A stretch of DNA of 64,000 bases, from NCBI RefSeq assembly GCF_030684315.1, contig NC_081394.1, positions 5,426,163 through 5,490,162 of the forward strand, read 5' to 3'. This DNA comes from Stegostoma tigrinum. Lineage: Eukaryota. Shown in pieces: positions 9,228 to 64,000 of this stretch. The first letter of the stretch is position 1. Every line of letters starts with the position of its first letter. Under the pieces are notes generated by a model, which saw nothing but the letters and a program-made list of their open reading frames with translations, was not told where the DNA came from and searched no databases. A program made the position numbers and the translations under genes.

Positions 9228-9229
<2 letters not shown>

Positions 9230-9261
<32 letters not shown>
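9230..9261. repeat. (CA)n microsatellite
   Basis: About 16 CA units. Confidence 0.95.
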
Positions 9262-9263
<2 letters not shown>

Positions 9264-24545: not shown

Positions 24546-26560
24546 TGTTGCAAACACTCAGATTTCAGTAAACCAGAATTTATTTAAACACTGTAGTTAA
24601 AATACAAACAAAAGAAAGAGGAATTTAGAATAACTTGACAATTCGGAAACTTAATCGTATAACAGGCACTGTACCTATTACTAATTAACTGTTCCAATTT
24701 AGCAACATCCCATAAACACACCCCTTGGCAAAAAGGTAAATTCAGACACAGATTTGCGGGTTTCCAATCCAGGAAGAAACAACTCAAGAGAGATTTCAGA
24801 CTCGGTCACATTGACTGAAGCCTGCAACCCTTTCTGGGACTCAAACATCTTATTACTACTGCAACTAAAAAAAACTAGAAAGCCTGATCTGGGAGAACTC
24901 CCCTTCCATTGTTACAACTGTGTTAAAAAAACCTAAAATCTTCCTAAATTACCAACTTAGATCAGCTCCCTAGCCACTTCAATTCTTATGCCTTTACAAC
25001 CTATTTTTTTAAAAAATCAGGACAAAGTTAACTTTTTAAAGTGACAACAGTCACACACCCCCTTTAAAACAATGAACCATCAATATACAAAGATGGTTTA
25101 TGTTAAAACCCTAAGTCTGACTCTGTTAGTTTGCTGTGATACATGTACATTCCATTGTTTCCAGTGATTGAATGCAACCATTCCTCCTTCATTCTATTTC
25201 AGTCCGTTGACTCCTGCCACCAAACTTCTCCATCTTTCTTGATCCAAATCACAACAATGTGTTGGCATTAACGGTTTCTCATCCTGTCACATGTATAATT
25301 TTCAAATTGAATGGCTGCGATAATAGCACCATCTCAACAGTCTGGAATTTCTGTCCTTAAATCACTCCAAAATCTTTAATGGGTTATGATCAAGATATAC
25401 AATTGTGTCAGACACATTACAGGCAATATAAATGTTGTAACACCAAATTCAAGGGCTCCTTCTCAATCGTGGAATATTTCTGTTGCTGATTATTCAGTTT
25501 CCTGGAGAAATACCCGAGAGGTCTTTCAATCTTCTCATTGTCTTGTTATAAGAGTAGATCACCGACACTCACTTCAATAACCACCTTGAATGGCTTTGTG
25601 TAATGAGTTGTGGCTAACCCTGGGGTGGTGGTTAACACAGCTTTCAGCCTGTCGAGTACCTCCTGACAATCTGCCGCACACTGCACTTCTTCAATAAGAC
25701 AGTCAGCGGAGAACCACACTGTTAAAATTCAGTACGAATTTCCAATAAAACCCACTCTTCAGCAATGGGAAACCCGCCAATAAACTTTGTTTTTACAATG
25801 CATGGGGCCAACTGTCCACGTCCAGTAACATTACTCAAAAATGTGAATTGGGCTTTGGTGAATCCACTCTCAGCCAGGTTTATCACCAAGGCTGGCTCCT
25901 GAAATTGATCAAATAATTCAGATAAATGCTGCAAATATTCCTTCCGTGTTTGATGAAAAACCACCAGGTTGACATTGTACACCGGGCAAATGGGTAATCT
26001 GGAAATGTCTTAACTGGTTAGTCTCGGAAATGTCGCTAGCACTTTTTTCAGACCAAATGGCCTGACTTTAAATTGATATAGTTCATTCAGTGGCATGAAA
26101 TCCAAACTTGTTTTTGTTGTTTTGTATAGAAGTACCAGACACTATCCTCTGAGTAAGTCCAACTTAGAAATAAGGGTTGCTCATCCCGCTTTCTCAATGC
26201 AGTCTTCCAAATGCAGAACAGGTCATGAATCAGACTTTGTGACTGCATAGACATTGCAATAGTCCACACATAATTGCTGGGGACCGTCGGGTTTTGGCAT
26301 CATGACTATGGGTGAGCTCCAGTCTCTGTAACTCACTTTGATTAATTGTGTTGTCTTTGAGTGTGCTTTCAATCTCATCTCGAACCTGTATCACCCTTAC
26401 AGCGCTAAGTCTATTAGGATGTTGCTGAATTGGACATCATGCAGAGCTGGATTCGCCCTTCCCAGTTTATTTCCACATAACTCCCCATGTGATTGTAACA
26501 TCTCTTTCAGGTCATTTTGATTTTCTTCTGGAAAGTAACTCAATAATTTATACCAGTTTT
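24546..26560 (-). mobile_element. Degenerate Gypsy RT-RNase H plus PPT and 3' LTR (LTR truncated in units B-D)
   Basis: QHLSELFDQF...LVINLAES...FTFL (RT) and KPFxVVIEVS..G...YFSRKLNNQQQKYSTIEKE (RNase H). Purine tract ttttaaaggggg at 25069-25058 then TG; LTR-like segment with AATAAA ending in CA near 24546. Confidence 0.75.
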
Positions 26561-29065
26561 GAGAACTTGGTCACAATGTCCATGGAACATTCTGGAAGTT
26601 ACCTTTTCACAGATCAGCACATGGTGTGACTGATGATCCACACAGTGAAAGGTGGTCCTGCATGTTCCTGAGACTGTGGCTGGCAAAAGTAGGGAAAGGA
26701 GATGAAACAGATTGTCAGGCAACTCAGTTTCTCCAGAAGGCCTCATTCTGAATGCTTAGCTGAACTCTAAGAGTCACCAGTTGATGAGCTCAGCCAGGGT
26801 TTATTATGTTGGACTAAAGTATGTTTTCATTGATTTTGATGTGTTGTTTCAGCATCTATAGGCTCAATTGGACAAGGTTAAGAGGGTGTGAAATGAGGGA
26901 AAGCTTCTGACAATAAAGTGGCTCTGCTGTCGAATTGACAATGTCAGAGTTGTAAGAATAGCAGTTCTTTATCAAAGCAGATTTCTAATTCTTTGCAATC
27001 ATCATTTAAAGCTTGGCATCATTATTATCCGGTGAACTGGTTCAGTACAGAGTGTGGACTGAGCGAGCAGGATGGAGAAGGCGTGGGATAATAGCTTTCA
27101 AACTTAAGGTTTCTAATGCAGCTTAAAGTTCACAGCATCCGTCAAATATCAATCATCAACTCCACTAAAAATTCCATGGGGTTGAAGATGACTGTCCCCC
27201 CCCAGCGGAGATGGCGAGGTGGTGAGTGCAGGGTGCAGGATTAAAAATTGCTGGGATTGGAATCAAGGATTCCGATCTGCCCAGCCAGTTTTTAACAGCC
27301 TCCAGAATGGGTCTGACTTTGTGAAAACCGCGGCGTAACTGTATGGGATTGTGTTGGTGGTCCAGACTTGGACGTTGGTAAGTCATTGCTGATCTCAGCC
27401 TCTCCAATGGCAATCACCAGACAGCTACTGCAATGAGCTAATTCAGAGACAGGGTTAGAGCAACTCAGCTGCAGCCACCCCCCAGCCCAGGGGCTCATTC
27501 TCCATTCGCTGTGTCTGCATGATCGGGTGATGCTGGTGAAAGCACCTCCATTTCACTTGGTTCAAGCAGATCATTCGAAGGGTCTTGATGACAGCTTTTG
27601 TTTTCATTCCTAGGAGAGAGAAACCAGCAGAGTTCAGGTGAAAACAATCCAACTGTTTGGACAGGGGAGTAAAGCAGCTGCTCAGAAGCACACACCCATG
27701 AAATGGCACTCAACAGCGTGGGACGAATGGCAGCTCGAAAATGCGCATCAGGAGCTGCACGCTGATGGAGCCCTCAGAGAGTCGAGGAGAGGAGGCTTGT
27801 AGGAGGCGATGGGCTGGACACTCCACAGGAGCTGTGCTGACCGACGAAGGGAGGGCCACAGGAGACAGGGAGAGAACCCTGCAACAGTTCCTCATCCCAC
27901 TGTGAGTGGAAAGATGGTGAGCACAGCGATGTGGATATTGAGTGGAACAAGGAAAGCCAGGATGGGATTCCTAATGACGGAATCCTCCAATTCCCAACTT
28001 CGAGGGAAGGTTTGAAAAGGCTGAGGCGAGTTATATAGCAGCTGTAACGTGGGATACAGGAATGACCAAAAACAATCTGACACTGAGACACACACAAGCA
28101 ATGAGACATTCCTTGAAAATCAGCTTCAATGAGCACTGCGTGGGTGTGGCTTAGGGTGCATTGATCCCAGCATTCACTCGAGTGAAACTTTCTTACATTC
28201 CCTTAAAAACAAATACATCACACATTTCCTAAAGAGACAAGACTGTGCACAGGCCTCCAGTTTGCTTCTGATACATATCCTTATAGAACCTGCAGCAAGA
28301 TCTCCTTCCTCTGACCCACCTGCAAGGAAGGTGACTATCCCATTCCCCTTCCTCATTCCTTACATGGTAACTTAGCGATTTGTCTACAATTTCCTCTGAA
28401 TGACACATTCACTGGCCTTTCACCTTGTAAAAATAGCCTTTTCCATTCACTCTTCACTTTTTTTTACACAAGCCACGACAGTTATGGTCCAGTCAATTAT
28501 CCAGCCTACCCCTGTTTGCAGCCTCTGTATCCTCCTCGCAGCTTACTTTCCCACTGAGCTTTGTATCATCAGCAAACTGGGACAATTATTCTCTATCCCC
28601 TCATCCCAGTCGCTGATATAGATTGTGAGTCACTGAAGTCCCAGCACTGATCCTTACAGCACCAGTTACATCCTGACAGCTGAAAATGACCGATTTGTTC
28701 CTGCTCTGTTCCTGTGCATTAACCAATCCTCAGTCCATTCTGTATAGCCACCTCATTCTATGAGCCCTCATCTTGTGCGACAACTTATTGTGAGTCACCT
28801 ACTTAAATACCTCCTGAAATTCCTGATATATGCCCCATCCTCTGGTTTTCCAGTGGGATACCTCTTGCTCCGTTCCAATCCATGAGGACTATTCAGCAAC
28901 AAGAGGATGACAAGCAGGAAGTGACTGGGTGATGCTGCTCAGGCTGGATTGAAGCATCCTCACAGCTCAGGGAATGGACAGGGGCAGAGCGCAACAACAT
29001 TTCATGCAGTTTCATACAAAGAAAAAAGGGTAACCATGGAAATTGTGAAACATTCCAGAACTCAC

Positions 29066-32000
29066 CACCTTTTTCGCTTCCAAATGTTATAAACCACAAG
29101 TACAACAACAACAAAAACAGCAACAATCCCGATTCCCAATCCAACTCTTGCTCCAGTGGAGATTCCAGGACCTACAGACAGAATGAAGACATGAGCAAAC
29201 TGGGACACATGAACAAAACTAACAGCAGAGACCCTCAGCACCTAGTGTTTCAGAATGAGCCCCACTACAAACAGATCCCTGGGCGATTCTAGTCCTGGAG
29301 GGATGTGGGAGGCTAGATCACATAGATGAGAATATAGCTGCAGATAAACAGATATAAACCAATCGCATTGAACACAATCATAATTATAATCCTCTGATAC
29401 ACACCTCCTTTACGCACAGACATACGCACAAACAAACAGAGAAAATAGATTACTCGCGTGAGTGGAGAAAGCCGGAAAGTCAGTTCAGGCATCTTTCGTA
29501 ATTAGTTTCCTGCAAGTTGCAACTGAACTTTTTACAAGCTCAGAGAATGGGCAGCTTCTGCGGCGAACAACGGCACAATCTTTTGTCTCATTCGTTCTGT
29601 GTCTCTGGGAATTGTTTTCCACCACTCTCCGAATTCAAAAGGGATGGAAAGTGGGAGAGTGAAAAGAAGGCAAGAGATAAGGAAAGGATAACTGGGAACG
29701 CTTCACGGTGTCCTCCTCAGATCAAAAGGGAAAGTACCGAGGGTGGAAGTGAAAGTCAGAAGCCAATGGTGTTTCCACGGTACCAAGGTGGGACACTTGC
29801 ATTCAGAATGCTGGAGGTTCAACTGGAAACAGATAGGACGGATTGGAGTTTGTAAGAATGAGTCTGAAAAAGAAAGAAATCAGGTTGTAGCTCGAATTAA
29901 AATTAGAGGTAGACTCTGCCGTGAATGTCACAAAAATTCATAGCATAGATGAGAAATACGAAGGATTTTTGTGTACGGGCCATTTTCTTCAAAGGAAGAA
30001 TCCAAGTTGATAACTATTCTCAGAGATACAAGGGCTACTCAAACTCTCTTGAGGGAGTAGGATTTAATTTTCCATTCAGAGATTTTAATGAAAGCCACCG
30101 TGTTGGGAAATGGAATAGATGGACAGGATATTCCAGTTTGCTTTCTCCAAAGTCCAACTGAAGCATAGCTTGGGTTGACTGCGCTCATGGTAGTCAGGAC
30201 AGTTAAGAAATGACCTGTAGATGGAATTCTTTTACTTCTGGGGAATGATCTGACAGATGCAAAAGTTTCAACTTTGCTAATTATCACAGAAAGTCCAGCT
30301 GAAGCTTAAATGACAGAACAGTTAGAGGAACAGGTCCCAATATTCTTCCATCCTGTAGCATGACCAGATCAATTGATAAAGAAAGTCCAGCCCAGAGGTC
30401 ACAGTAATACTGCAAACAGATTCTAGGGTCACTGAAGCTCCATTTAAGAATAAAGATAATTCAAAGGAAGCGTTTGGCATGTCTTCATTAACTGAGAATC
30501 AGGAAGCAGAGCCAAATTCGAGAGCGATAGCACAGACAGCTCAGGCTGAGGCTCCGTCTGCTGGAGTTCCAGACTGTCATTATATTTTAAAAAAAGTTCT
30601 GATGAGGAAGTGGAGACATCCTCATTAACCAGTGAATGACAAATAGATGATTGTTCATCAAAACTGGTACTGTCCAGATATTGTGAAGAAACTTTGTGAA
30701 TCGCATGTGAAAGTCCAATAGCAGGAGGTATGAGAATATTGAAAACACAGGCGTCAATAAACAGGTATTTTATATGGGTCAGGGCTTCATAAAGACATAG
30801 TGCAGTTCTGTAAAACATAGACATGTCAGGAAGTAAGAATATTTCAGCATGTAATCACGATACCCACACGAGATTCTGAAGAACCTTTTAGTTGAGGGTT
30901 TGTGGGTTGTGAAGGATCATTTTCATATTTCTGGGAAAGATAATATAATTGCAGATAAATTATCCCAAATGTAAAATGTTAAAATAAGTTCAACATTCAG
31001 GAAATTCTAAGATTGTGTAAGATTCACAAAATGAGAGGATCAATGAAAGTATGTAAATCTTGCTTTGATGCAGTGTAAAGAGGGAGGACGTGTGGCACAG
31101 CGGCTGCGTCCTTGTTTGGGGTCACTACCTCCAGGTTTAAGGACTTCACCATGAGAGAACGTGTGCCTTAGCTGGCCAAACAGGTTGATTATCAACCTGT
31201 AAACCCCTTCTTCAGACCTAGTGTCCTGATCAAGAAAAAAACATGTGGCAGCTGCTGTGAAAAAGTTAAGATTCCCCACATTGATGCTTCCCACACAGGG
31301 TCTCAGTGCGAGCATCATCCTCCCTCTGAGGAACAGGCAGCTCGCAGAAACAACTTTATCCAGCAGGTGAGGGATAATAGGAACTGCAGATGTTGGAGAA
31401 TCTGAGATAACAAGGTGTGGAGCTGGATGAACGCAGCAGGCCAAGCAGCATCGGAGGAGCAGAAAAGCTGACATTTTGGATCTAGACGCTTCATTGTTTT
31501 CTCGAACTGGAAACAGCATACTCATGGAACCAAGTAAATCTCAATAAGATGAGAAAATTCCCTTTCTCCCTGGGACTGGGGTTGGGGGAGCGGAAGGGCA
31601 GCTTACACCTAGATCACTGTTACTCTCCACTGACTTCACTTTCCATCAGTTTCCCAACAGCAGGGTTGCATTCAAAGTGTACTGAGACTCTCCACACAGA
31701 ATTCCAGAAACACTAATGTCAGTGGGAAGCAGGGATCCTCAGAGTCCTGTACCTGAGTGCCATGATGGGATTTGAATTCTCATTCTCTGGATTATTAGAC
31801 CAGGTCTCTGGACTGTTGTCTAGTAACATGACCAACACTGGACACCCCCAAAGAAATGTCTTCAGGCCCCTACTGTATTGCATGTACAGCTATGACTGTG
31901 TTGCCAAATTTTGAATGAACACCATCTGCAAGTTCACTGCTGACTTCAGCATGGTGGGATGGCTATCTAACAACAGAATGGAGTTGGAGGGCTTGGTCAT

Positions 32001-35000
32001 GTGCTGCAATGAAATCAGTCTGTCTCCCAACCTCTGCAAAACTAAAGAATTGATCATTGACTTCAGGAAGAATGGAGGAGAACATGCTTCCATCTATTTC
32101 GATGGAACTGAGGTGGAGAGGATGAAGAGCATGATGTTCCTTGAAATGACAATAACGGACAACCTGTCCTGGACTTGCCACGTAGACGTGACAGTCAAGG
32201 AGACACAGCAATGCCACTTCTCGCTCAGGCGGCTCAGGAAATTGGCATATTGACAAGGTCCCTCACCAACCTCCATAGATGCACCATTGAAAGTGCACTG
32301 TCCGGGTGTATAACGGCCTGGTACGGTAACTCTTCTGCCCAGGACTGTGAGAAACTACAGAAGGCTGTGTGCACAGCCCAGACCATCACAGAAGCCGACC
32401 TGCCATCCGCGGACTCTACTCACACAGCTCACTGCCACAGAAAGGCAGCCAACATCATCAAAGACTCATCACACCCTGGTAATGACCTTCCATAACCTCT
32501 TCCATCAGGCAGAAGATACAGAAGCCTGAAAGCATGTACGAACATGTTCAGGAGCAGCTTCACTCTGGCTGTTATCAGACTGTTGAATGTCTTCTCACCT
32601 CAGCCAATGGAACCTGCAATGTAACCTGCATGCCTCTATTTGCTCTGTACATCCCTTGCATGCTGTGATCTGCCTGTACTACATGTAAACAAAGCTTTTC
32701 ACTGATTTATTGTCACATGTACCAAAATACAATCAATCTGATGGACAGGAAGGGGTCTCTCAAAAACTTAATAACAAATTCCAAGGGCCAGTTCCAGGTA
32801 ACAGTGACCCACATCACTCACTTTAGCAGACTCATTCTTTCATACAATACCACACAGCATTGCAAACCACCAATGTCGCTCCCTGTTTATCCCGCATGAT
32901 CAAATGTAAGATATGAAAACACAGCAATATTTTACACACAGATTTACCTGGTACAGTTGTGTTTGGTCCAGCTGTAGGAGCTCGCTCTAAAGAAAACAAC
33001 ATGCGTTTAGTACAGTGTGTGAAACAAACTGCAGAAATGTTCAGAGATTCTATCGGGCTTTAGGGAAACACATCCAAGGAGGAATGAGGATTGGGTCAAA
33101 CTGATCAGGAGGGATCAAGGACAGAATGGGAGTGAAAATTCCAACAAGATTGTGTTATCTGTAGAATGGAAGTTTTCCAGAGTTTCCCTGAGGAGGATCA
33201 TTCCCAGCAGCTTTCATCCCCCTGTGGGGACAATTCTCACAGGATCCTGGACCAAAAGGGAGACACTTTCAAGCTCAGTCTTCAGAGCCTTGTAAAGGCT
33301 GCATCGGGGGTTCTGTGGGTCCCACGTCCTGCACCCCAACCTCTGGAAACAGAAACGCCATGTTTCTGGGAAGGAAGTGTAGGTTATGGCACATACAGTT
33401 ATATGACATATTGGTCTGTCTTTAGTTTGGCCTGAATTAGACTTGGAGTCTGTTCAGTTATGTTCTGTTTTGTTTTCTCTCTCGTGGTTTAAAACTGATT
33501 GAAGCTCTGAATAAATCAGAGCATGGTTAATGTCAGACTGGAGTCACACAGACCAAGTAAGGGCACCAGGGTTTTATACCAAAACATTGAAACGCAGAAC
33601 AGAGGAGCAGGAGTAGGCCATTCAGCCCTTCAAGCCTGTTCCACCACTCAATATGATCATCACTGATCTTCCAGTTCAGGGATGGTCTCACTAAGACCTT
33701 GTACAATTGTAGCAAGGCATCTCCACTCCTGTACGCAATTCCTGTCACTATGAAGGCCAACGTACCATTTGTCTTCTTCACCACCTGCTATGCTTACCTT
33801 CAGCAACTGGTGTACAGGGACACCCAGGTCTTGTTGCGCCTGCCCCTTTCCCAATCTATCACTGTTCAGATAATTATCTGCCCCCCTGCTTTTGGTTCCA
33901 AAGTGAATGACCTCACATTTATCCAAATTATCTGCATCTGCCAAGCATTTTCCCACTCACTCAACTTATCCAAATCACACTGAAGCATCTCTGCATCCTC
34001 CTCACAGTTCATCTTCCCACCCAGCTTTGTGTTGTCGGCAACCTTTGAGACATTAACTTAAAACCCTCATCTAAATCATTCATATATTGTGTGAATACAT
34101 GGGATTCAAGCACTGAAGCCATTTGGTACCCCACAGATGCCAAGCTAACCGGTCTATATTTCCCTGTTTTCTCTCTCCCTGCTCTTTTTAAAAATTGTAT
34201 GGTTACATTAGCTACCCTCTAATCCATAGGAGCTCTTTCAGAGTCTATAGAATCTTGGACAATAATCAGTAATCCAGCAACATACGCTGGGAGTGTTCTT
34301 ACCTAAAGGGTCATCAGTGATTAGTTTCACAACAATTCAACATCTTCACTGTCACTTTTCTTCTTTCTCTTCCCAGATTTTTATTTAATACCCTGAATTT
34401 AAACCCTGGAAGTCCCATGGTGGGATGTGAATTTTTATTCTCTGGATTATTAGTCCAAGTCTTCACATTTCTCATAACCCCTACACTGCTATCCCCATAG
34501 CATCAGAGATTAAATACACAATACCTAAAACAGAAACCTCTCACCTTTTACAGAGAGATGAACAATTTCAGTTTGCGCCCAATATACACCTACAGTCGTG
34601 CAGAAAATCTGACAGTGATACTCATCCTGGTCTGTCTCCCTGAGGACAGAGATCAGAACTGACCAGTTGCCTTTTTCCAGCTGATCTTTGAACAGGTTTG
34701 TTCTGTTTATGAACTGTGTATCTTGTTCTCTCAAATTATCGTTTCCATAGACAAACTTGTGTACAATTTCCGTCTTGCGTCTCCCCCAGATGACCAGTAA
34801 ATCAGAGACTGGGATTTTCCCTTTGTAGATACAGGGCAGTACAACCTGCTCTCCAAGGAACCCAGAAACTGAGACAGGCGAGTCACCTGCAAAAGAGTGA
34901 AAGTGTTTATCCACAGATATAACCTCCCTGCTGGTACATTACATCCCAAGCTTCACATGGATACATTGAGATGCTGAAATTACAACAACCGCAGCTTCAT

Positions 35001-35415
35001 TTCATTTCTGTGGAAAGGTCAAAGTTCAGGATGGCTCTATTTATCATTAACGGTTCCCTGCGATACATTAATCGGAGTTTAAAAGAGTTTAGAAACGTAT
35101 AAAATTTTGGCAGGACCAGATAGGATCACAGCACTGACCTGAAACAGCAGAAACAGCACTCAGCAGGAGCAGCAGGGGGAGCGGTTTCTGTGAGCAATGT
35201 CCCTGCAACAAGAAAACACTGTGAGCCCCTTTCCCGACACATTCACTGCTCGGAAAGCTTTCCCCCGCATTTACCTCCCTCCATGTCCGCGGGTGGCAGG
35301 CACTGACAGTAAATACCTGCATCTCCTTTCCCGGGACCCGGACTGGGATCAGGATCAGGGCCAGACACCGACAGCAGACCGAGAAGCTGCTGAGAAACAC
35401 TTTGTAAAACTCCAT
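29066..35415 (-). CDS. Gene A: single IgV-domain B7/butyrophilin-like membrane (or secreted) protein, apparently intact
   Basis: Exons: 35415-35317 (MEFYK...KEMQ|gtattt), 35202-35139 leader (GHCSQKPLPLLLLLSAVSAVS), 34886-34545 V (342 nt), 32986-32948 stalk (ERAPTAGPNTTVP), then 29171-29066 TM (GPGISTGARVGLGIGIVAVFVVVVLVVYNIWKRKR) or alternative 31752-31739 (GTGL*). All introns are GT-AG with compatible phases (0,1,1,1). Confidence 0.75.
34545..34886 (-). CDS. Ig V-set exon of gene A
   Basis: ttttgcag|GTGAC...GTAAAAG|gtgaga. Encodes VVLPC...W...QDTQFINRTNLFKDQLEKGNWSVLI...TDQDEYHC, the B7/BTN-type V signature. Confidence 0.9.
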
Positions 35416-49700: not shown

Positions 49701-51717
49701 GTTCAGTACAGAGTGTGGACTGAGCGAGCAGGATGGAGAAGGCGTGGGATAATAGCTTTCAAACTTAAGGTTTCTAATGCAGCTTAAAGTTCACAGCATC
49801 CGTCAAATATCAATCATCAACTCCACTAAAAATTCCATGGGGTTGAAGATGACTGTCCCCCCCCAGCGGAGATGGCGAGGTGGTGAGTGCAGGGTGCAGG
49901 ATTAAAAATTGCTGGGATTGGAATCAAGGATTCCGATCTGCCCAGCCAGTTTTTAACAGCCTCCAGAATGGGTCTGACTTTGTGAAAACCGCGGCGTAAC
50001 TGTATGGGATTGTGTTGGTGGTCCAGACTTGGACGTTGGTAAGTCATTGCTGATCTCAGCCTCTCCAATGGCAATCACCAAACAGCTACTGCAATGAGCT
50101 AATTCAGAGACAGGGTTAGAGCAACTCAGCTGCAGCCACCCCCCAGCCCAGGGGCTCATTCTCCATTCGCTGTGTCTGCATGATCGGGTGACAGCACCTC
50201 CATTTCACTTGGTTCAAGCAGATCATTCGAAGGGTCTTGATGACAGCTTTTGTTTTCATTCCTAGGAGAGAGAAACCAGCAGAGTTCAGGTGAAAACAAT
50301 CCAACTGTTTGGACAGGGGAGTAAAGCAGCTGCTCAGAAGCACACACCCATGAAATGGCACTCAACAGCGTGGGACGAATGGCAGCTCGAAAATGCGTAT
50401 CAGGAGCTGCACGCTGATGGAGCCCTCAGAGAGTCGAGGAGAGGAGGCTTGTAGGAGGCGATGGGCTGGACACTCCACAGGAGCTGTGCTGACCGACGGA
50501 GGGAGGGCCACAGGAGACAGGGAGAGAACCCTGCAACAGTTCCTCATCCCACTGTGAGTGGAAAGATGGTGAGCACAGCCATGTGGATATTGAGTGGAAC
50601 AAGGAAAGCCAGGATGGGATTCCTAATGACAGAATCCTCCAATTCCCAACTTCGAGGGAAGGTTTGAAAAGGCTGAGGCGAGTTACATAGCAGCTGTAAC
50701 GTGGGATACAGGAATGACCAAAAACAATCTGACACTGAGACACACACAAGCAATGAGACATTCCTTGAAAATCAGCTTCAATGAGCACTGCGTGGGTGTG
50801 GCTTAGGGTGCATTGATCCCAGCATTCACTCGAGTGAAACTTTCTTACATTCCCTTAAAAACAAATACATCACACATTTCCTAAAGAGACAAGACTGTGC
50901 ACAGGCCTCCAGTTTGCTTCTGATACATATCCTTATAGAACCTGCAGCAAGATCTCCTTCCTCTGACCCACCTGCAAGGAAGGTGGCTATCCCATTCCCC
51001 TTCCTCATTCCTTACATGGTAACTTAGCGATTTGTCTACAATTTCCTCTGAATGACACATTCACTGGCCTTTCACCTTGTAAAAATAGCCTTTTCCATTC
51101 ACTCTTCACTTTTTTTTACACAAGCCACGACAGTTATGGTCCAGTCAATTATCCAGCCTACCCCTGTTTGCAGCCTCTGTATCCTCCTCGCAGCTTACTT
51201 TCCCACTGAGCTTTGTATCATCAGCAAACTGGGACAATTATTCTCTATCCCCTCATCCCAGTCGCTGATATAGATTGTGAGTCACTGAAGTCCCAGCACT
51301 GATCCTTACAGCACCAGTTACATCCTGACAGCTGAAAATGACCGATTTGTTCCTGCTCTGTTCCTGTGCATTAACCAATCCTCAGTCCATTCTGTATAGC
51401 CACCTCATTCTATGAGCCCTCATCTTGTGCGACAACTTATTGTGAGTCACCTACTTAAATACCTCCTGAAATTCCTGATATATGCCCCATCCTCTGGTTT
51501 TCCAGTGGGATAACTCTTGCTCCGTTCCAATCCATGAGGACTATTCAGCAACAAGAGGATGACAAGCAGGAAGTGACTGGGTGATGCTGCTCAGGCTGGA
51601 TTGAAGCATCCTCACAGCTCAGGGAATGGACAGGGGCAGAGCGCAACAACATTTCATGCAGTTTCATACAAAGAAAAAAGGGTAACCATGGAAATTGTGA
51701 AACATTCCAGAACTCAC

Positions 51718-54700
51718 CACCTTTTTCGCTTCCAAATGTTATAAACCACAAGTACAACAACAACAAAAACAGCAACAATCCCGATTCCCAATCCAACTCT
51801 TGCTCCAGTGGAGATTCCAGGACCTACTGACAGAATGAAGACATGAGCAAACTGGGACACATGAACAAAACTAACAGCAGAGACCCTCAGCACCTAGTGT
51901 TTCAGAATGAGCCCCACTACAAACAGATCCCTGGGCGATTCTAGTCCTGGAGGGATGTGGGAGGCTAGATCACATAGATGAGAATATAGCTGCAGATAAA
52001 CAGATATAAACCAATCGCATTGAACACAATCATAATTATAATCCTCTGATACACACCTCCTTTACGCACATACATACGCACAAACAAACAGAGAAAATAG
52101 ATTACTCGCGTGCGTGGAGAAAGCCGGAAAGTCAGTTCAGGCATCTTTCGTAATTAGTTTCCTGCAAGTTGCAACTGAACTTTTTACAAGCTCAGAGAAT
52201 GGGCAGCTTCTGCGGCGAACAACGGCACAATCTTTTGTCTCATTCGTTCTGTGTGTCTGTGTCTCTGGGAATTGTTTTCCACCACTCTCCGAATTCAAAA
52301 GGGATGGAAAGTGGGAGAGTGAAAAGAAGGCAAGAGATAAGGAAAGGATAACTGGGAACGCTTCACGGTGTCCTCCTCAGATCAAAAGGGAAAGTACCGA
52401 GGGTGGAAGTGAAAGTCAGAAGCCAATGGTGTTTCCACGGTACCAAGGTGGGACACTTGCATTCAGAATGCTGGAGGTTCAACTGGAAACAGATAGGACG
52501 GATTGCAGTTTGTAAGAATGAGTCTGAAAAAGAAAGAAATCAGGTTGTAGCTCGAATTAAAATTAGAGGTAGACTCTGCCGTGAATGTCACAAAAATTCA
52601 TAGCATAGATGAGAAATACGAAGGATTTTTGTGCACGGGCCATTTTCTTCAAAGGAAGAATCCAAGTTGATAACTATTCTCAGAGATACAAGGGCTACTC
52701 AAACTCTCTTGAGGGAGTAGGATTTAATTTTCCATTCAGAGATTTCAATGAAAGCCACCGTGTTGGGAAATGGAATAGATGGAGAGGATATTCCAGTTTG
52801 CTTTCTCCAAAGTCCAACTGAAGCATAGCTTGGGTTGACTGCGCTCATGGTAGTCAGGACAGTTAAGAAATGACCTGTAGATGGAATTCTTTTACTTCTG
52901 GGGAATGATCTGACAGATGCAAAAGTTTCAACTTTGCTAATTATCACAGAAAGTCCAGCTGAAGCTTAAATGACAGAACAGTTAGAGGAACAGGTCCCAA
53001 TATTCTTCAATCCTGTAGCATGACCAGATCAATTGATAAAGAAAGTCCAGCCCAGAGGTCACAGTAATACTGCAAACAGATTCTAGGGTCACTGAAGCTC
53101 CATTTAAGAATAAAGATAATTCAAAGGAAGCGTTTGGCATGTCTTCATTAACTGAGAATCAGGAAGCAGAGCCAAATTCGAGAGCGATAGCACAGACAGC
53201 TCAGGCTGAGGCTCCGTCTGCCGGAGTTCCAGACTGTCATTATATTTTTAAAAACGTTCTGATGAGGAAGTGGAGACATCCTCATTAACCAGTGAATGAC
53301 AAATAGATGATTGTTCATCAAAACTGGTACTGTCCAGATATTGTGAAGAAACTTTGTGAATCGCATGTGAAAGTCCAATAGCAGGAGATATGAGAATATT
53401 GAAAACACAGTCGTCAATAAACAGGTATTTTATATGGGTCAGGGCTTCATAAAGACATAGTGCAGTTCTGTAAAACATAGACATGTCAGGAAGTAAGAAT
53501 ATTTCAGCATGTAATCACGATACCCACACGAGATTCTGAAGAACCTTTTAGTTGAGGGTTTGTGGGTTGTGAAGGATCATTTTCATATTTCTGGGAAAGA
53601 TAATATAATTGCAGATAAATTATCCCAAATGTAAAATGTTAAAATAAGTTCAACATTCAGGAAATTCTAAGATTGTGTAAGATTCACAAAATGAGAGGAT
53701 CAATGAAAGTATGTAAATCTTGCTTTGATGCAGTGTAAAGAGGGAGGACGTGTGGCACAGCGGCTGCGTCCTTGTTTGGGGTCACTACCTCCAGGTTTAA
53801 GGACTTCACCATGACAGAACGTGTGCCTTAGCTGGCCAAACAGGTTGATTATCAACCTGTAAACCCCTTCTTCAGACCTAGTGTCCTGATCAAGAAAAAA
53901 ACATGTGGCAGCTGCTGTGAAAAAGTTAAGATTCCCCACATTGATGCTTCCCACACAGGGTCTCAGTGCGAGCATCATCCTCCCTCTGAGGAACAGGCAG
54001 CTCGCAGAAACAACTTTATCCAGCAGGTGAGGGATAATAGGAACTGCAGATGTTGGAGAATCTGAGATAACAAGGTGTGGAGCTGGATGAACGCAGCAGG
54101 CCAAGCAGCATCGGAGGAGCAGAAAAGCTGACATTTTGGATCTAGACGCTTCATTGTTTTCTCAAACTGGAAACAGCATACTCATGGAACCAAGTAAATC
54201 TCAATAAGATGAGAAAATTCCCTTTCTCTCTGGGACTGGGGTTGGGGGAGCGGAAGGGCAGCTTACACCTGGATCACTGTTACTCTCCACTGACTTCACT
54301 TTCCATCAGTTTCCCAACAGCAGGGTTGCATTCAAAGTGTACTGAGACTCTCCACACAGAATTCCAGAAACACTAATGTCAGTGGGAAGCAGGGATCCTC
54401 AGAGTCCTGTATCTGAGTGCCATGATGGGATTTGAATTCTCATTCACTGGATTATTAGTCCAGGTCTCTGGACTGTTGTCTAGTAACATGACCAACACTG
54501 GACACCCCCAAACAAGTGTCTTCAGGCCCCTACTGTATTGCATGTACAGCTATGACTGTGTTGCCAAATTCCGAATGAACACCATCTGCAAGTTCACTGC
54601 TGACTTCAGCATGGTGGGATGGCTATCTAACAACAGAATGGAGTTGGAGGGCTTGGCCATGTGCTGCAATAAAAACAGTCTGTCTCCCAACCGCTGCAAA

Positions 54701-57700
54701 ACTAAAGAATTGATCATTGACTTCAGGAAGAATGGAGGAGAACATGCCTCCATCTATTTCGATGGAACTGAGGTGGAGAGGATGAAGAGCATGATGTTCC
54801 TTGAAATGACAATAACGGACAACCTGTCCTGGACTTGCCACGTAGACGTGACAGTCAAGGAGACACGGCAATGCCACTTCTCGCTCAGGCGGCTCAGGAA
54901 ATTGGCATATTGACAAGGTCCCTCACCAGCCTCCATAGATGCACCATTGAAAGTGCTCCGTCCGGGTGTATAACGGCCTGGTACGGTAACTCTTCTGCCC
55001 AGGACTGTGAGAAACTACAGAAGGCTGTGTGCACAGCCCAGACCATCACAGAAGCCGACCTGCCATCCGCGGACTCTACTCACACAGCTCACTGCCACAG
55101 AAAGGCAGCCAACATCATCAAAGACTCATCACACCCGGGTAATGACCTTCCATAACCTCTTCCATCATGCAGAAGATACAGAAGCCTGAAAGCATGTACG
55201 AACATGTTCAGGAGCAGCTTCACTCTGGCTGTTATCAGACTGTTGAATGTCTTCTCACCTCAGCCAATGGAACCTGCAATGTAACCTGCATGCCTCTATT
55301 TGCTCTGTACATCCCTTGCATGCTGTGATCTGCCTGTACTACATGTAAACAAAGCTTTTCACTGATTTATTGTCACATGTACCAAAATACAATCAATCTG
55401 ATGGACAGGAAGGGGTCTCTCAACAACTTAATAACAAATTCCAAGGGCCAGTTCCAGGTAACAGTGACCCACATCACTCACTTTAGCAGACTCATTCTTT
55501 CATACAATACCACACAGCATTGCAAACCACCAATGTCGCTCCCTGTTTATCCCGCATGATCAAATGTAAGATATGAAAACACAGCAATATTTTACACACA
55601 GATTTACCTGGTACAGTTGTGTTTGGTCCAGCGGTAGGAGCTCGCTCTCAAGAAAACAACATGCGTTTGGTACAGTGTGTGAAACAAACTGCAGAAATGT
55701 TCAGAGATTCTATCGGGCTTTAGGGAAACACATCCAAGGAGGAATGAGGATTGGGTCAAACTGATCAGGAGGGATCAAGGACAGAATGGGAGTGAAAATT
55801 CCAACAAGATTGTGTTATCTGTAGAATGGAAGTTTTCCAGAGTTTCCCTGAGCAGGATCATTCCCAGCAGATTTCATCCCCCTGTGGGGACAATTCTCAC
55901 AGGATCCTGGACCAAAAGGGAGACACTTTCAAGCTCAGTCTTCAGAGCCTTGTAAAGGCTGCATCGGGGGTTCTGTGGGTCCCACGTCCTGCACCCCAAC
56001 CTCTGGAAACAGAAGCGCCGTGTTTCTGGGAAGGAAGTGTAGGTTATGGCACATACAGTTATATGATATATTGGTCTGTCTTTAGTTTGGCCTGAATTAG
56101 ACTTGGAGTCTGTTCAGTTATGTTCTGTTTTGTTTTCTCTCTCGTGGTTTAAAACTGATTGAAGCTCTGAATAAATCAGAGCATGGTTAATGTCAGACTG
56201 GAGTCACACAGACCAAGTAAGGGCACCAGGGTTTAATACCAAAACATTGGAACGCAGAACAGAGGAGCAGGAGTAGGCCATTCAGCCCTTCAAGCCTGTT
56301 CCACCACTCAATATGATCATCACTGATCTTCCAGTTCAGGGATGGTCTCACTAAGACCTTGTACAATTGTAGCAAGGCATCTCCACTCCTGTACGCAATT
56401 CCTGTCACTATGAAGGCCAACGTACCATTTGTCTTCTTCACCACCTGCTATGCCTACCTTCAGCAACTGGTGTACAGGGACACCCAGGTCTTGTTGCGCC
56501 TCCCCCTTTCCCAATCTATCACTGTTCAGATAATTATCTGCCCCCCTGCTTTTGGTTTCAAAGTGAATGACCTCACATTTATCCAAATTATCTGCATCTG
56601 CCAAGCATTTTCCCACTCACTCAACTTATCCAAATCACACTGAAGCATCTCTGCATCCTCCTCACAGTTCATCTTCCCACCCAGCTTTGTGTTGTCTGCA
56701 ACCTTTGAGACATTAACTTAAAACCCTCATCTAAATCATTCATATATTGTGTGCATACATGGGATTCAAGCACTGAAGCCATTTGGTACCCCACAGATGC
56801 CAAGCTAACCGGTCTATATTTCCCTGTTTTCTCTCTCCCTGCTCTTTTTAAAAATTGTATGGTTACATTAGCTACCCTCTAATCCATAGGAGCTCTTTCA
56901 GAGTCTATAGAATCTTGGACAATAATCAGTAATCCAGCAACATACGCTGGGAGTGTTCTTACCTAAAGGGTCGTCAGTGATTAGTTTCACAACAATTCAA
57001 CATCTTCACTGTCACTTTTCTTCTTTCTCTTTCCAGATTTTTATTTAATACCCTGAATTTGAACCCTGACAGTCCCATGGTGGGATGTGAATTTTTATTC
57101 TCTGGATTATTAGTCCAAGTCTTCACATTTCTCATAACCCCTTCACTGCTATCCCCATAGCATCAGAGATTAAATACACAATACCTAAAACAGAAACCTC
57201 TCACCTTTTACTGAGAGATGAACAATTTCAGTTTGCTCCCAATATACACCTACAGTCGTGTTCCGGAAAATCTGGCACTGATACTCATCCTGGTCTGTCT
57301 CCCTGAGGTCAGAGATCAGAACTGACCAGTTGCCTTTTTCCAGCTGATCTTTGAACAGGTTTGTTCTGTTTATGAACTGTGTATCTTGTTCTCTCAAATT
57401 ATCGTTTCCATAGACAAACTTGTGTACAATTTCCGTCTTGCGTCTCCCCCAGATGACCAGTAAATCAGAGACTGGGATTTTCCCTTTGTAGATACAGGGC
57501 AGTACAACCTGCTCTCCAAGGAATCCAGAAACTGACACAGGCGAGTCACCTGCAAAAGAGTGAAAGTGTTTATCCACAGATATAACCTCCCTGCTGGTAC
57601 ATTACATCCCAAGCTTCACATGGATACATTGAGATGCTGAAATTACAACAACCGCAGCTTCATTTCATTTCTGTGGAAAGGTCAAAGTTCAGGATGGCTC

Positions 57701-58078
57701 TATTTATCATTAACGGTTCCCTGCGATACATTAATCGGAGTTTAAAAGAGTTTAGAAACGTATAAAATTTTGGCAGGACCAGATAGGATCACAGCACTGA
57801 CCTGAAACAGCAGAAACAGCACTCAGCAGGAGCAGCAGGGGGAGCGGTTTCTGTGAGCAATGTCCCTGCAACAAGAAAACACTGTGAGCCCCTTTCCCGA
57901 CACATTCACTGCTCGGAAAGCTTTCCCCCGCATTTACCTCCCTCCATGTCCGCGGGTGGCAGGCACTGACAGTAAATACCTGCATCTCCTTTCCCGGGAC
58001 CCGGACTGGGATCAGGATCAGGGCCAGACACCGACAGGAGACCGAGAAGCTGCTGAGAAACACTTTGTAAAACTCCAT
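51718..58078 (-). CDS. Gene C: single IgV-domain B7/butyrophilin-like protein
   Basis: Exons 58078-57980, 57865-57802, V 57549-57205 (345 nt), stalk 55646-55608 (acceptor weakened, ttTAG to ttGAG), TM 51823-51718, alternative terminal exon 54412-54399. Confidence 0.7.
57205..57549 (-). CDS. Ig V-set exon of gene C
   Basis: Canonical splice sites and open frame; F-G region reads YQCQIFRNTTVGVYWEQ. Confidence 0.9.
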
Positions 58079-58843: not shown

Positions 58844-61800
58844 ATCTTATTACTACTGCAACTAAAAAAAACTAGAAAGCCGTCTGGGAGAACTCCCCTT
58901 CCATTGTTACAACTGTGTTAAAAAAACCTAAAATCTTCCTAAATTACCAACTTAGGTCAGCTCCCTAGCCACTTCAATTCTTCTGCCTTTACAACCTATT
59001 TTTTTAAAAAATCAGGACAAAGTTAACTTTTTAAAGTGACAACAGTCACACACCCCCTTTAAAACAATGAACCACCAATATACAAAGATGGTTTATGTTA
59101 AAACCCTAAGTCTGACTCTGTTAGTTTGCTGTGATACATTGACATTCCATTGTTTCCAGTGATTGAATGCAACCATTCCTCCTTCATTCTATTTCAGTCC
59201 GTTGACTCCTGCCACCAAACTTCTCCATCTTTCTTGATCCAAATCACAACAATGTGTCGGCATTAACGGTTTCTCATCCTGTCACATGTGTAATTTTCAA
59301 ATTGAATGGCTGCGATAATAGCGCCATCTCAACAGTCTGGAATTTCTGTCCTTAAATGACTCCAAAATCTTTAATGGGTTATGATCAAGATATACAATTG
59401 TGTCAGACACATTACAGGCAATATAAATGTTGTTACACCAAATTCAAGGGCTCCTTCTCAATCGTGGAATATTTCTGTTGCTGATTATTCAGTTTCCTGG
59501 AGAAATACTCGAGTGGTCTTTCAATCTTCTCATCGTCTTGTTCTAAGAGTAGAGCACCGACACTCACTTCAATAACCACGTTGAATGGCTTTGTGTAATG
59601 AGTTGTGGCTAACCCTGGGGTGGTGTTTAACACAGCTTTCAGCCTGTCGAGTACCTCCTGACAATCTGCCGCACACTGCACTTCTTCAATAAGACAGTCA
59701 GCGGAGAACCACACTGTTAAAATTCAGTACGAATTTCCAATAAAACCCACTCTTCAGCAATGGGAAACCCGCCAATAAACTTTGTTTTCACAATGCATGG
59801 GGCCAACTGTCCATGTCCAGTAACAGTACCCAAAAATGTGAATTGGGCTTTGGTGAATCCACTCTCAGCCAGGTTTATCACCAAGCCTGGCTCCTGAAAT
59901 TGATCAAACAATTCAGATAAATGCTGCAAATATTCCTTCCGTGTTTGATGAAAAACCACCAGGTTGACATTGTACACCAGGCAAATGGGTAATCTGGAAA
60001 TGTCTTAACTGTTTAGTCTCGGAAATGTCGCTAGCACTTTTTTCAGACCAAATGGCCTGACTTTAAATTGATATAGTTCATTCAGTGGCATGAAATCCAA
60101 ACTTGTTTTTGTTGTTTTGTATAGAAGTACCAGACACTATCCTCTGAGTAAGTCCAACTTACAAATAAGGGTTGCTCATCCCACTTTCTCAATGCAGTCT
60201 TCCAAATGCAGAACAGGTCATGAATCAGACTTTGTAACTGCATAGACATTGCAATAGTCCACACATAATTGCTGGGGACCATTGGGTTTTGGCATCATGA
60301 CTATGGGTGAGCTCCAGTCTCTGTAACTCACTTTGATTGATTGTGTTGTCTTTGAGTGTGCTTTCAATCTCTTCTCGAACCTGTATCACCCTTACAGCGC
60401 TAAGTCTATTAGGATGTTGCTGAATTGGACATCATGCAGAGCTGGATTCGCCCTTCCCAGTTTATTTCCACATATCTCCCTATGTGATTGTAACATCTCT
60501 TTCAGGTCATTTTGATTTTCTTCTGGAAAGTAACTCAATAATTTATACCAGTTTTGAGAACTTGGTCACAATGTCCATGGAACATTCTGGAAGTTACCTT
60601 TTCACAGATCAGCACATGGTGTGACTGATGATCCACACAGTGAAAGGTGGTTCTGCATGTTCCTGAGACTGTGGCTGGCAAAAGTAGGGAAAGGAGATGA
60701 AACAGATTGTCAGGCAACTCAGTTTCTCCAGAAGGCCTCATTCTGAATGCTTAGCTGAACTCTAAGAGTCACCAGTTGATGAGCTCAGCCAGGGTTTATT
60801 ATGTTGGACTAAAGTATGTTTTCATTGATTTTGATGTGTTGTTTCAGCATCTATAGGCTCAATTGGACGAGGTTAAGAGGGTGTGAAATGAGGGAAAGCT
60901 TCTGATAATAAAGTGGCTCTGCTGTCGAATTGACAATGTCAGAGTTGTAAGAATAGCAGTTCTTTATCAAAGCAGATTTCTAATTCTTTGCAATCATCAT
61001 TTAAAGCTTGGCATCATTATTATCCGGTGAACTGGTTCAGTACAGAGTGTGGACTGAGCGAGCAGGATGGAGAAGGCGTGGGATAATAGCTTTCAAACTT
61101 AAGGTTTCTAATGCAGCTTAAAGTTCACAGCATCCGTCAAATATCAATCATCAACTCCACTAAAAATTCCATGGGGTTGAAGATGACTGTCCCCCCCCCA
61201 GCGGAGATGGCGAGGTGGTGAGTGCAGGGTGCAGGATTAAAAATTGCTGGGATTGGAATCAAGGATTCCGATCTGCCCAGCCAGTTTTTAACAGCCTCCA
61301 GAATGGGTCTGACTTTGTGAAAACCGCGGCGTAACTGTATGGGATTGTGTTGGTGGTCCAGACTTGGACGTTGGTAAGTCATTGCTGATCTCAGCCTCTC
61401 CAATGGCAATCACCAAACAGCTACTGCAATGAGCTAATTCAGAGACAGGGTTAGAGCAACTCAGCTGCAGCCACCCCCCAGCCCAGGGGCTCATTCTCCA
61501 TTCGCTGTGTCTGCATGATCGGGTGACAGCACCTCCATTTCACTTGGTTCAAGCAGATCATTCGAAGGGTCTTGATGACAGCTTTTGTTTTCATTCCTAG
61601 GAGAGAGAAACCAGCAGAGTTCAGGTGAAAACAATCCAACTGTTTGGACAGGGGAGTAAAGCAGCTGCTCAGAAGCACACACCCATGAAATGGCACTCAA
61701 CAGCGTGGGACGAATGGCAGCTGGAAAAAAAATGGCAGCAGGAGCTGCACGCTGATGGAGCCCTCAGAGAGTTGAGGAGAGGAGGCTTGTAGGAGGCGAT

Positions 61801-64000
61801 GGGCTGGACACTCCACAGGAGCTGTGCTGACCGACGGAGGGAGGGCCACAGGAGACAGGGAGAGAACCCTGCAACAGTTCCTTATCCCACTGTGAGTGGA
61901 AAGATGGTGAGCACAGCGATGTGGATATTGAGTGGAACAAGGAAAGCCAGGATGGGATTCCTAATGACTGAATCCTCCAATTCCCAACTTCGAGGGAAGG
62001 TTTGAAAAGGCTGAGGCGAGTTATATAGCAGCTGTAACGTGGGATACAGGAATGACCAAAAACAATCTGACACTGAGACACACACAAGCAATGAGACATT
62101 CCTTGAAAATCAGCTTCAATGAGCACTGCGTGGGTGTGGCTTAGGGTGCATTGATCCCAGCATTCACTCGAGTGAAACTTTCTTACATTCCCTTAAAAAC
62201 AAATACATCACACATTTCCTAAAGAGACAAGACTGTGCACAGGCCTCCAGTTTGCTTCTGATACATATCCTTATAGAACCTGCAGCAAGATCTCCTTCCT
62301 CTGACCCACCTGCAAGGAAGGTGACTATCCCATTCCCCTTCCTCATTCCTTACATGGTAACTTAGCGATTTGTCTACAATTTCCTCTGAATGACACATTC
62401 ACTGGCCTTTCACCTTGTAAAAATAGCCTTTTCCATTCACTCTTCACTTTTTTTTACACAAGCCACGACAGTTATGGTCCAGTCAATTATCCAGCCTACC
62501 CCTGTTTGCAGCCTCTGTATCCTCCTCGCAGCTTACTTTCCCACTGAGCTTTGTATCATCAGCAAACTGGGACAATTATTCTCTATCCCCTCATCCCAGT
62601 CGCTGATATAGATTGTGAGTCACTGAAGTCCCAGCACTGATCCTTACAGCACCAGTTACATCCTGACAGCTGAAAATGACCGATTTGTTCCTGCTCTGTT
62701 CCTGTGCATTAACCAATCCTCAGTCCATTCTGTATAGCCACCTCATTCTATGAGCCCTCATCTTGTGCGACAACTTATTGTGAGTCACCTACTTAAATAC
62801 CTCCTGAAATTCCTGATATATGCCCCATCCTCTGGTTTTCCAGTGGGATACCTCTTGCTCCGTTCCAATCCATGAGGACTATTCAGCAACAAGAGGATGA
62901 CAAGCAGGAAGTGACTGGGTGATGCTGCTCAGGCTGGATTGAAGCATCCTCACAGCTCAGGGAATGGACAGGGGCAGAGCGCAACAACATTTCATGCAGT
63001 TTCATACAAAGAAAAAAGGGTAACCATGGAAATTGTGAAACATTCCAGAACTCACCACCTTTTTCGCTTCCGAATGTTATAAACCACAAGTACAACAACA
63101 ACAAAAACAGCAACAATCCCGATTCCCAATCCAACTCTTGCTCCAGTGGAGATTCCAGGACCTACAGACAGAATGAAGACATGAGCAAACTGGGACACAT
63201 GAACAAAACTAACAGCAGAGACCCTCAGCACCTAGTGTTTCAGAATGAGCCCCACTACAAACAGATCCCTGGGCGATTCTAGTCCTGGAGGGATGTGGGA
63301 GGCTAGATCACATAGATGAGAATATAGCTGCAGATAAACAGATATAAACCAATCGCATTGAACACAATCATAATTATAATCCTCTGATACACACCTCCTT
63401 TACGCACAGACATACGCACAAACAAACAGAGAAAATAGATTACTCGCGTGAGTGGAGAAAGCCGGAAAGTCAGTTCAGGCATCTTTCGTAATTAGTTTCC
63501 TGCAAGTTGCAACTGAACTTTTTACAAGCTCAGAGAATGGGCAGCTTCTGCGGCACAATCTTTTGTCTCATTCGTTCTGTGTGTCTGTGTCTCTGGGAAT
63601 TGTTTTCCACCACTCTCCGAATTCAAAAGGGATGGAAAGTGGGAGAGTGAAAAGAAGGCAAGAGATAAGGAAAGGATAACTGGGAACGCTTCACGGTGTC
63701 CTCCTCAGATCAAAAGGGAAAGTACCGAGGGTGGAAGTGAAAGTCAGAAGCCAATGGTGTTTCCATGGTACCAAGGTGGGACACTTGCATTCAGAATGCT
63801 GGAGGTTCAACTGGAAACTGATAGGACGGATTGGAGTTTGTAAGAATGAGTCTGAAAAAGAAAGAAATCAGGTTGTAGCTCGAATTAAAATTAGAGGTAG
63901 ACTCTGCCGTGAATGTCACAAAAATTCATAGCATAGATGAGAAATACGAAGGATTTTTGTGCACGGGCCATTTTCTTCAAAGGAAGAATCCAAGTTGATA
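58844..64000. repeat. Tandem unit D (runs off the window)
   Basis: Same junction; includes the TM exon at 63056-63161. Confidence 0.95.
63056..63161 (-). CDS. Transmembrane exon of gene D (rest of gene beyond window end)
   Basis: Same 106-nt exon as 29066-29171: tgtag|GTCCTGG...AGGTG|gtgagt. Confidence 0.7.

Follow-up and report, generated by a model that had tools for sequence, protein, structure and literature searches.

Single-V genes of the B7 superfamily

The canonical B7 ligands consist of an immunoglobulin V (IgV) domain followed by an IgC domain, and among the multigene V-domain immune genes of fishes those of the CD300/MDIR, NITR and NKp30 type carry immunoreceptor tyrosine-based inhibitory motifs (ITIMs) or charged transmembrane (TM) residues. 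HHLA2 has the layout V-C-V (PMC10173190), and in human Ig superfamily data PD-L1, CD276, VTCN1 and their relatives cluster apart from the butyrophilins (PMC13262535). The chicken BG genes encode a single V domain and a TM segment, and form a tandem array that includes hybrid genes and expands and contracts through recombination (PMC4046983); they have long heptad-repeat tails and a dimer cysteine in the loop of complementarity-determining region 1 (CDR1), and lie in or near the major histocompatibility complex (MHC) (PMC4046983; PMC5043582). The Skint genes form a cluster outside the MHC whose gene number differs between mouse strains (PMC4046983). Here we describe a tandem array of B7-like genes, each with one V domain and no IgC exon, in a stretch of 64,000 nucleotides from contig NC_081394.1 of the zebra shark Stegostoma tigrinum (the window). 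The array belongs to a real, and apparently undescribed, shark clade of IgC-less B7-like genes, of which it is a recently amplified, short-tailed member.

Anatomy of the array and its genes

The array and its genes were delineated as follows, in coordinates of the window:

24847..64000, strand not assigned: tandem array, about 3.45 units of 11.32-11.34 kb, exceeding the right edge of the window; self-BLAST identity 98.4-99.3%, unit divergence 0.43-0.97%
50156..58078, minus strand: gene A, intact; exon 1 57980-58078, leader 57802-57865, V 57205-57549, stalk 55608-55646, TM 51718-51823, tail 50156-50261
38832..46743, minus strand: gene B, intact; exon 1 46645-46743, leader 46467-46530, V 45873-46214, stalk 44276-44314, TM 40394-40499, tail 38832-38937
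27495..35415, minus strand: gene C, intact; exon 1 35317-35415, leader 35139-35202, V 34545-34886, stalk 32948-32986, TM 29066-29171, tail 27495-27609
61491..63161, minus strand: gene D, 3' part; TM 63056-63161, tail 61491-61596; the 5' exons would fall outside the window
38832..38937, minus strand: tail exon, gene B copy; phase-2 acceptor, 34 codons to a TGA, no tyrosine
33155..33246, minus strand: alternative terminal exon after V, gene C copy; five copies in all, the others at 55906, 44574, 17619 and 12086

Self-BLAST revealed that 36182-64000 is a copy of 24847-52672 with 99.3% identity across 27.8 kb. Homologous exons of neighbouring units are spaced by 11,324-11,338 bp, and the three full units differ pairwise at 49, 69 and 110 of about 11,320 sites. 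Each unit bears one minus-strand gene, three of them intact (A, B and C) and the fourth (D) represented by its 3' end, so that self-BLAST and exon mapping bear out the array of three complete genes plus a fourth TM exon, one per ~11.33-kb unit, which an initial annotation of this DNA had proposed. Tandem Repeats Finder, whose period limit is 500, misses the array. A decayed fragment of the reverse transcriptase/RNase H region of a long terminal repeat retrotransposon is seen at every unit edge (59433-59723 and equivalents; Pfam E 5.5e-14), and the introns are filled with what we take to be LINE-like fragments.

In genes A, B and C the leader exon spans 64 nt, the V exon 342 or 345 nt, the stalk exon 39 nt (13 residues) and the TM exon 106 nt, and every junction is GT-AG with matching phases. 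The V exons read QDTQFINRTNLFKDQLEKGNWSVLI and match the Pfam V-set model at E-values of 2.7e-10 to 2.4e-9. The V signature, the phase-matched canonical splice sites and the 13-residue stalk were accordingly correct as first read, as was the series of exon 1, leader, V, stalk and TM; a sixth, cytoplasmic exon had been missed, and gene D comprises this tail exon in addition to its TM exon. Each unit would thus encode a type I membrane glycoprotein of approximately 220-250 residues, in which the signal peptide is followed by a single IgV domain of B7 type, a stalk rich in Pro and Thr, a Gly-rich TM helix that is free of charged residues and comes from one TM exon, and a short tail without tyrosine.

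These genes are already present in RefSeq under scattered automatic names. Gene A with read-through of its TM exon is identical, letter for letter, to RefSeq P0014 (LOC132206695 isoform X2, Stegostoma tigrinum); read-through past the TM donor leaves a tail of just 6 residues. Exon 1, leader and V of gene C joined to the exon at 33155-33246 give RefSeq P0204 exactly, a TM-less form, and this alternative terminal exon would yield a predicted secreted V-only protein. RefSeq starts translation at an in-frame ATG of exon 1 that lies 31 codons upstream of the start chosen originally. This upstream ATG (exon 1 at 46645-46743 and equivalents) has a strong Kozak context and is common to the whale-shark protein P0032, and the downstream in-frame ATG corresponds to a leucine in relatives.

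We scanned the 150 stop-to-stop frames of at least 42 residues in the unit 36182-47509 against Pfam and recovered no C-set or IgC exon; three further matches fall below threshold and are unrelated. As the V exon alone passes the Pfam cut-off among these frames, the unit is without an IgC exon. The same scan rejected both a hidden IgC exon and the leucine-rich-repeat-like appearance of the segment at 41.3-42.2 kb.

A shark-wide family

A search with the V exon recovered 47 proteins among 109 candidates, and one with the TM-tail region 42 among 109, all of them from sharks, while a 20-sequence profile recovered 68 among 8,000 candidates, namely 66 shark proteins, one fragment and one guppy protein at 24% identity. 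No ray or chimaera is named in the results of these three word-based searches, a type of search that may overlook remote relatives. In an exhaustive search, none of the proteins outside the family exceeds 39% identity among the best 150 of 2,102 matches. Twelve named shark species hold members, and they include carpet, mackerel, ground and horn sharks as well as one sawshark. In most species the family matches lie on contigs of equal size, implying one cluster. The model P0057 fuses a family V-TM protein to KRAB and PR/SET domains and is probably mis-joined; it suggests that a PRDM9-like gene adjoins the cluster in some shark.

The full models, isoforms included, have one V domain in 51 of 66 cases and two in the remaining 15. 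The last V domain is separated from the TM segment by 5-36 residues in 54 of the 54 TM-bearing models, a spacing that, as judged from the models, never leaves room for an IgC domain. The absence of IgC claimed for the genes at the outset is hence confirmed for the family as well as for the unit. No ITIM or immunoreceptor tyrosine-based activation motif (ITAM) was detected in the 54 family tails, and charged TM windows are seen in 4 of 54 models. Across 57 V domains Trp33 and Cys91 are invariant and Cys18 is conserved in 56.

We built a tree from 114 columns for 58 V domains of sharks and 18 outgroup domains, with no named B7, BTN or BG references; 4 of the 22 outgroup rows of a first version, which had long outgroup branches, are left out. 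The shark set forms one side of a long branch (97/91 in the first tree, 100/99 in the rebuilt one). Species clades are seen for the horn shark (10 of 10 V domains) and the sawshark (4 of 4), the carpet-shark V domains form cross-species subfamilies, and the array V stands on a separate branch (100/99) of length 0.21; the deeper forks are without resolution at 114 columns. In this tree the shark genes form their own multigene clade, with no apparent one-to-one orthology to a single-copy gene. The attribution to cartilaginous fish is supported, whereas the notion of a lineage-specific family has to be narrowed: the family is shark-wide, and from the position of the zebra-shark V on its own branch only the 11.3-kb amplification looks specific to that species. 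The suggestion that the family was possibly undescribed stands in so far as searches limited to the open literature found no description; the genes already exist as RefSeq models. The family is unmentioned in passages of a fish-immunity review (PMC6795676), of two shark genome papers (PMC3964593, PMC7677710) and of a CD28 survey (PMC11599192), the supplements of which could list these genes.

Relationship to B7, butyrophilin, BG and other V-domain families

We compared the family profile with solved structures and obtained 66.5 bits for B7-H4 and 56.5 for PD-L1, as against 38.6 each for MOG and SCN4B, 31.1 for BTN1A1, 28.9 for BTN3A1 and 28.5 for CD80; the four-domain CD276 scores 69.3 bits, to which two domains contribute. 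A single-sequence search ranks B7-H4, PD-L1, MOG and BTN1A1 in the same order. The closest solved proteins are B7-H4 (E 3.7e-14 with the single sequence, 2.4e-17 with the profile), B7-H3 and PD-L1. Together with the Pfam V-set match and the canonical Cys-Trp-Cys triad, these matches place the genes in the B7 superfamily in its broad sense. The initial reading of a B7/BTN/MOG/BG-type V domain was correct as to the B7 type, and by these scores the domain is nearer to B7-H4 and PD-L1 than to the butyrophilins or MOG, which reduces the link to BG and the butyrophilins to an analogy.

The shark proteins resemble B7-H4 (VTCN1), B7-H3 (CD276) and PD-L1 in V sequence, in type I topology and in a tail without ITIM or ITAM. 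They differ from these in that neither the array genes nor the family have the IgV-IgC layout, and in forming tandem multigene sets with pseudogenes and a clade of their own on a long stem. With chicken BG the array genes share the single V domain and TM segment in a tandem, recombining array; however, the shark tail is one non-heptad exon of about 40 residues in the window or about 60 in the family, the shark V domains have no conserved third cysteine, their variation lies in the C-C' and F-G segments, and the cluster lies off the MHC chromosome in the two sharks checked. The butyrophilins, MOG and Skint likewise have a B7-superfamily V domain, yet they give lower V scores, and the shark genes are without IgC and without B30.2; neither a C domain nor B30.2, the marks of butyrophilins, was found in the unit or in the precomputed domains of family matches. 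Skint further has at least three TM segments, against one TM exon per shark gene. The array genes differ from CD300/MDIR, NITR and NKp30 in having no ITIM, tail tyrosine or charged TM, and none of these three appears among the PDB matches listed. B7-type V proteins without a C domain also occur outside sharks (the guppy 'MOG-like' P0206 and the multi-V P0048, P0065 and P0111); at ~25-39% identity these fall outside the shark clade and are without the shark TM and tail. Their existence means that the architecture in itself is neither new nor unique to sharks. The family thus resembles chicken BG and Skint and belongs to neither.

Linkage to the MHC, a check named beforehand, was examined in the white shark and the catshark with gene lists from the supplement of PMC10751288, and its outcome was negative in both. 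These lists place the MHC genes of the white shark between 65 and 112 Mb on chr19, whereas the family members are on a 16.5-Mb contig. The catshark genes LOC119975245 and LOC119975151 are absent from the listed genes of chr13, which extend to 163.4 Mb. Nor is the catshark family contig, at 165.2 Mb, either chr16 (145.0 Mb) or chr21 (71.0 Mb). In these two sharks the cluster is therefore not on the MHC chromosome.

The cytoplasmic tail and a second ectodomain

The TM exon ends at a phase-2 donor, and a matching acceptor is present about 1.45 kb downstream in each of A-D, followed by an open frame of 34 codons in A, B and D and 37 in C. The indel separating A, B and D from C is 9 nt and in frame. 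This tail exon matches the long tails of P0213 and P0215, which are proteins of bamboo and epaulette sharks (best E-values 6e-22 and 2e-16; in tblastn against P0213, 4e-19 for the gene B copy and 6e-22 for the gene C copy), and its DNA aligns, acceptor included, with a decayed family tail at 7.3-7.5 kb of the window with a score of 86, the best of 300 shuffles being 56. The profile of the standard family tail gives only a weak score (E 0.073 at best); the homology is accordingly established by the DNA alignment and the long-tail relatives, not by that profile. In gene B the homology to the long family tail runs to about 38635, beyond the stop and a frameshift. Because homology continues for about 60 codons past the TGA, and this TGA and the frameshift are common to all four copies A-D, an ancestral tail of about 110 residues with a single tyrosine appears to have been cut to about 40 with none. 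Gene B has no AATAAA or ATTAAA between the TM and tail exons and three after the tail, a placement that fits a terminal position of the tail exon. The tails of most sharks have a strongly conserved C-terminal stretch ending in EQNLLGNGAVQH, which is lost in the amplified copies; we take it to resemble, albeit imperfectly, an acidic dileucine sorting signal.

The TM-tail chassis is not confined to the B7-type V domain. Of the 42 matches to the TM-tail region, 8 carry a cysteine-rich domain in place of that V. Proteins of other sharks (P0208-P0215 and P0032) combine the same TM and tail family with a different, cysteine-rich Ig-like ectodomain, and P0207 and P0216 are forms without an ectodomain, the V being skipped. 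This second ectodomain has no sequence match in Pfam or the PDB and left no trace in the 64-kb window. An Atlas model of one of these proteins, itself of low confidence, aligns to V-set Ig folds with template-modelling scores of 0.70-0.78. Several of these genes lie on contigs equal in size to those of the V-type members, and one whale-shark model contains both ectodomains. Within the sample, a long tail like that of the array genes is seen only on second-ectodomain proteins (3 proteins), which suggests, from thin sampling, that the amplified gene may be a chimera of a B7-type V domain with a tail of the second type.

Damaged copies and exchange among copies

Six damaged or partial copies (E-J) lie at 1.8-23.3 kb, to the left of the array:

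17321..19791, minus strand: remnant E; exon 1, leader, V whose acceptor now reads AC, and stalk; lacks its own TM; the block matches unit A at 99.5% identity
11788..13697, minus strand: remnant F; 5'-truncated V (junction at 13698), stalk
7310..10170, minus strand: remnant H; V with a frameshift, TM at 8963-9068 interrupted by an in-frame stop, and a family tail of the standard type, decayed, around 7310-7468
1850..3814, minus strand: remnant G; exon 1, leader and a V with a frameshift; a TM was not found
20779..22055, plus strand: remnant I, inverted; exon 1 and leader, a V that has lost its acceptor and contains a stop and a frameshift, and a piece resembling the stalk
23268..23327, plus strand: remnant J; a leader exon by itself, its splice sites damaged, inverted like I

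The initial count of at least six damaged or partial paralogues is thereby upheld for six. Not all are old: self-BLAST gives E and F an identity of 98-99.5% with the units, so that the recent amplification reaches down to 10.2 kb and includes both. In remnant E an in-frame cryptic AG 15 nt inside the V exon (19240-19262) could permit splicing, possibly onto the stop-bearing TM at 9068. A Penelope-like GIY-YIG fragment lies at 5091-5774 (Pfam E 0.002). Outside the window, the zebra-shark protein P0016 (LOC125448528) has a V domain almost identical to those of E and F and a different stalk, TM and standard-type tail, a make-up pointing to probable exon exchange between paralogues.

We noted that relationships among the copies switch along the unit: from the 5' to the 3' block the difference between A and B falls from 1.32% to 0.21%, and that between B and C rises from 0.14% to 0.74%. 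The copies group as {A,E}, {B,C} and F in the 5' block, with 29 diagnostic sites private to F, 20 shared by {B,C} and 18 by {A,E}, and as {A,B}, C and D in the 3' block, with 29 private to C, 20 to D and 7 to A. The copies are mosaic and recombine. Together with the remnants beside intact genes and the species clades, this supports a multigene array evolving by birth-and-death. Among A, B, C and E, variable sites are three times as dense in the V exon (11 of 342) as in non-coding DNA (25 of 2528; p 0.002); since 5 of the 11 are synonymous, this excess points to sequence exchange, not to selection on the protein, and positive selection among the recent copies is unsupported. In B and C the glycosylation sequon of the F-G segment is replaced by an unpaired cysteine, an extra residue limited to these copies and remnant F; dimers of B and C would be possible.

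Possible roles of the amplified genes

B7 ligands bind their receptors through the C-C'-F-G face. In 57 non-redundant shark V domains the C-C' and F-G segments have a mean entropy of 1.68 bits, against 0.58 for A'/B/D/E (p 5e-9; no control family); of the 20 sites that vary most, 19 fall in these two segments. The strands were assigned by sequence landmarks, the AlphaFold models being poor (mean pLDDT, the predicted local distance difference test, 51.8 for the alignment model and 38.8 for the single-sequence V model). A Foldseek search with the alignment model gave weak matches to PD-L1, B7-2 and B7-H4 (best E 5.7e-5), which we did not use as evidence. The initial annotation left a choice between receptor and ligand; with no ITIM, ITAM or charged TM, and with no tyrosine in the tails of the window, a ligand is favoured over a receptor on these tail and TM features.

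We consider it moderately probable that the proteins are putative B7-like co-regulatory cell-surface ligands, themselves non-signalling, that are read through the C-C'-F-G face by a lymphocyte receptor. This receptor would be of the CD28/PD-1 family, of which sharks are reported to have several CD28-family members (PMC11599192), or an antigen receptor on lymphocytes. Unequal crossing-over and exchange between copies would create, recombine and destroy genes, and in the zebra shark one member with a shortened tail would have been amplified, raising ligand dose or adding a decoy; that copies A-C are expressed, and that their amplification brings any benefit, we infer. Several points weigh against the ligand role: many V families have variable F-G and C-C' loops, the placement of the variable sites depends on sequence landmarks, nearly half of the recent V-exon changes are the synonymous ones noted above, and the amplified gene is without the conserved tail end of the family (EQNLL-like in 35 of 54 tails), so that it may be a decaying copy.

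A conserved scaffold with a single hypervariable face, amplified copies that have lost the conserved tail, and the modelled secreted V-only form would also suit a surface protein shaped by pathogens. Viruses or parasites would use such a protein for attachment or be decoyed by it, and its variable face and its short-tailed, possibly secreted, copies would reflect escape or decoying rather than lymphocyte co-regulation; a chicken butyrophilin-like protein acts as a retrovirus receptor (PMC4046983). Replacement changes are not in excess among the recent copies, and we regard this explanation, which is compatible with a ligand role, as unlikely. The alternative that a family member already in partial decay, within a real family, was amplified neutrally as a segment, altering only the dosage of a weak or silent gene, draws on the premature stop and downstream frameshift in the tails of all four copies, on the long branch of the array V, on the six remnants nearby and on units full of retroelement fragments. 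It is harder to reconcile with coding exons and splice sites that are all intact in A-C, a tail frame open for 34-37 codons with an in-frame indel, and predicted RefSeq models for A and C, and seems to us decidedly unlikely.

A non-immune adhesion or accessory protein, comparable to single-V proteins such as MOG, MPZ or the sodium-channel beta subunits, would have the identical V-stalk-TM layout, and both the weak profile matches to MOG and SCN4B and the names that RefSeq gives to some members lean this way; with B7-H4 and PD-L1 scoring 18-28 bits higher, and with rapid birth-and-death and a variable face unlike those conserved genes, we hold this to be very improbable. Near-identical units could also arise by false haplotype duplication or repeat mis-joins in the assembly. 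Each shared block has at least three distinct sequence types, which two haplotypes cannot give, and such an artefact is scarcely credible, although the exact copy number could still be wrong. The co-regulatory ligand can be extended into a broader and speculative proposal, which we put forward with considerable doubt: that a V domain resembling those of B7-H4 and PD-L1 gave rise, independently in sharks, to a ligand cluster that lies outside the MHC, is polymorphic and varies in copy number, and that this cluster is the functional equivalent of BG, Skint and BTNL, serving to select or tune the gamma-delta or NAR-TCR T cells of sharks, with one leader-TM-tail chassis shuffled under the B7-type V and the divergent Ig-like ectodomain, and the zebra-shark array being a chimera of the first ectodomain and a tail type otherwise found on the second.

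Implications

Sharks are the oldest living lineage with T-cell receptors (TCR), MHC and CD28-family receptors, and their co-regulatory ligands are poorly catalogued. Lineage-specific Ig superfamily arrays are common, the present genes are already annotated as models and their function is putative, which tempers the significance of the locus. It nevertheless defines a shark-wide clade that is now hidden under CD276-like, MOG-like, ICOSL-like and SCN4B-like names, and provides a mapped variable face and candidate lymphocyte ligands open to testing. The family would add, beside chicken BG and mouse Skint, another independent case of a B7-superfamily V domain becoming a fast-evolving array.

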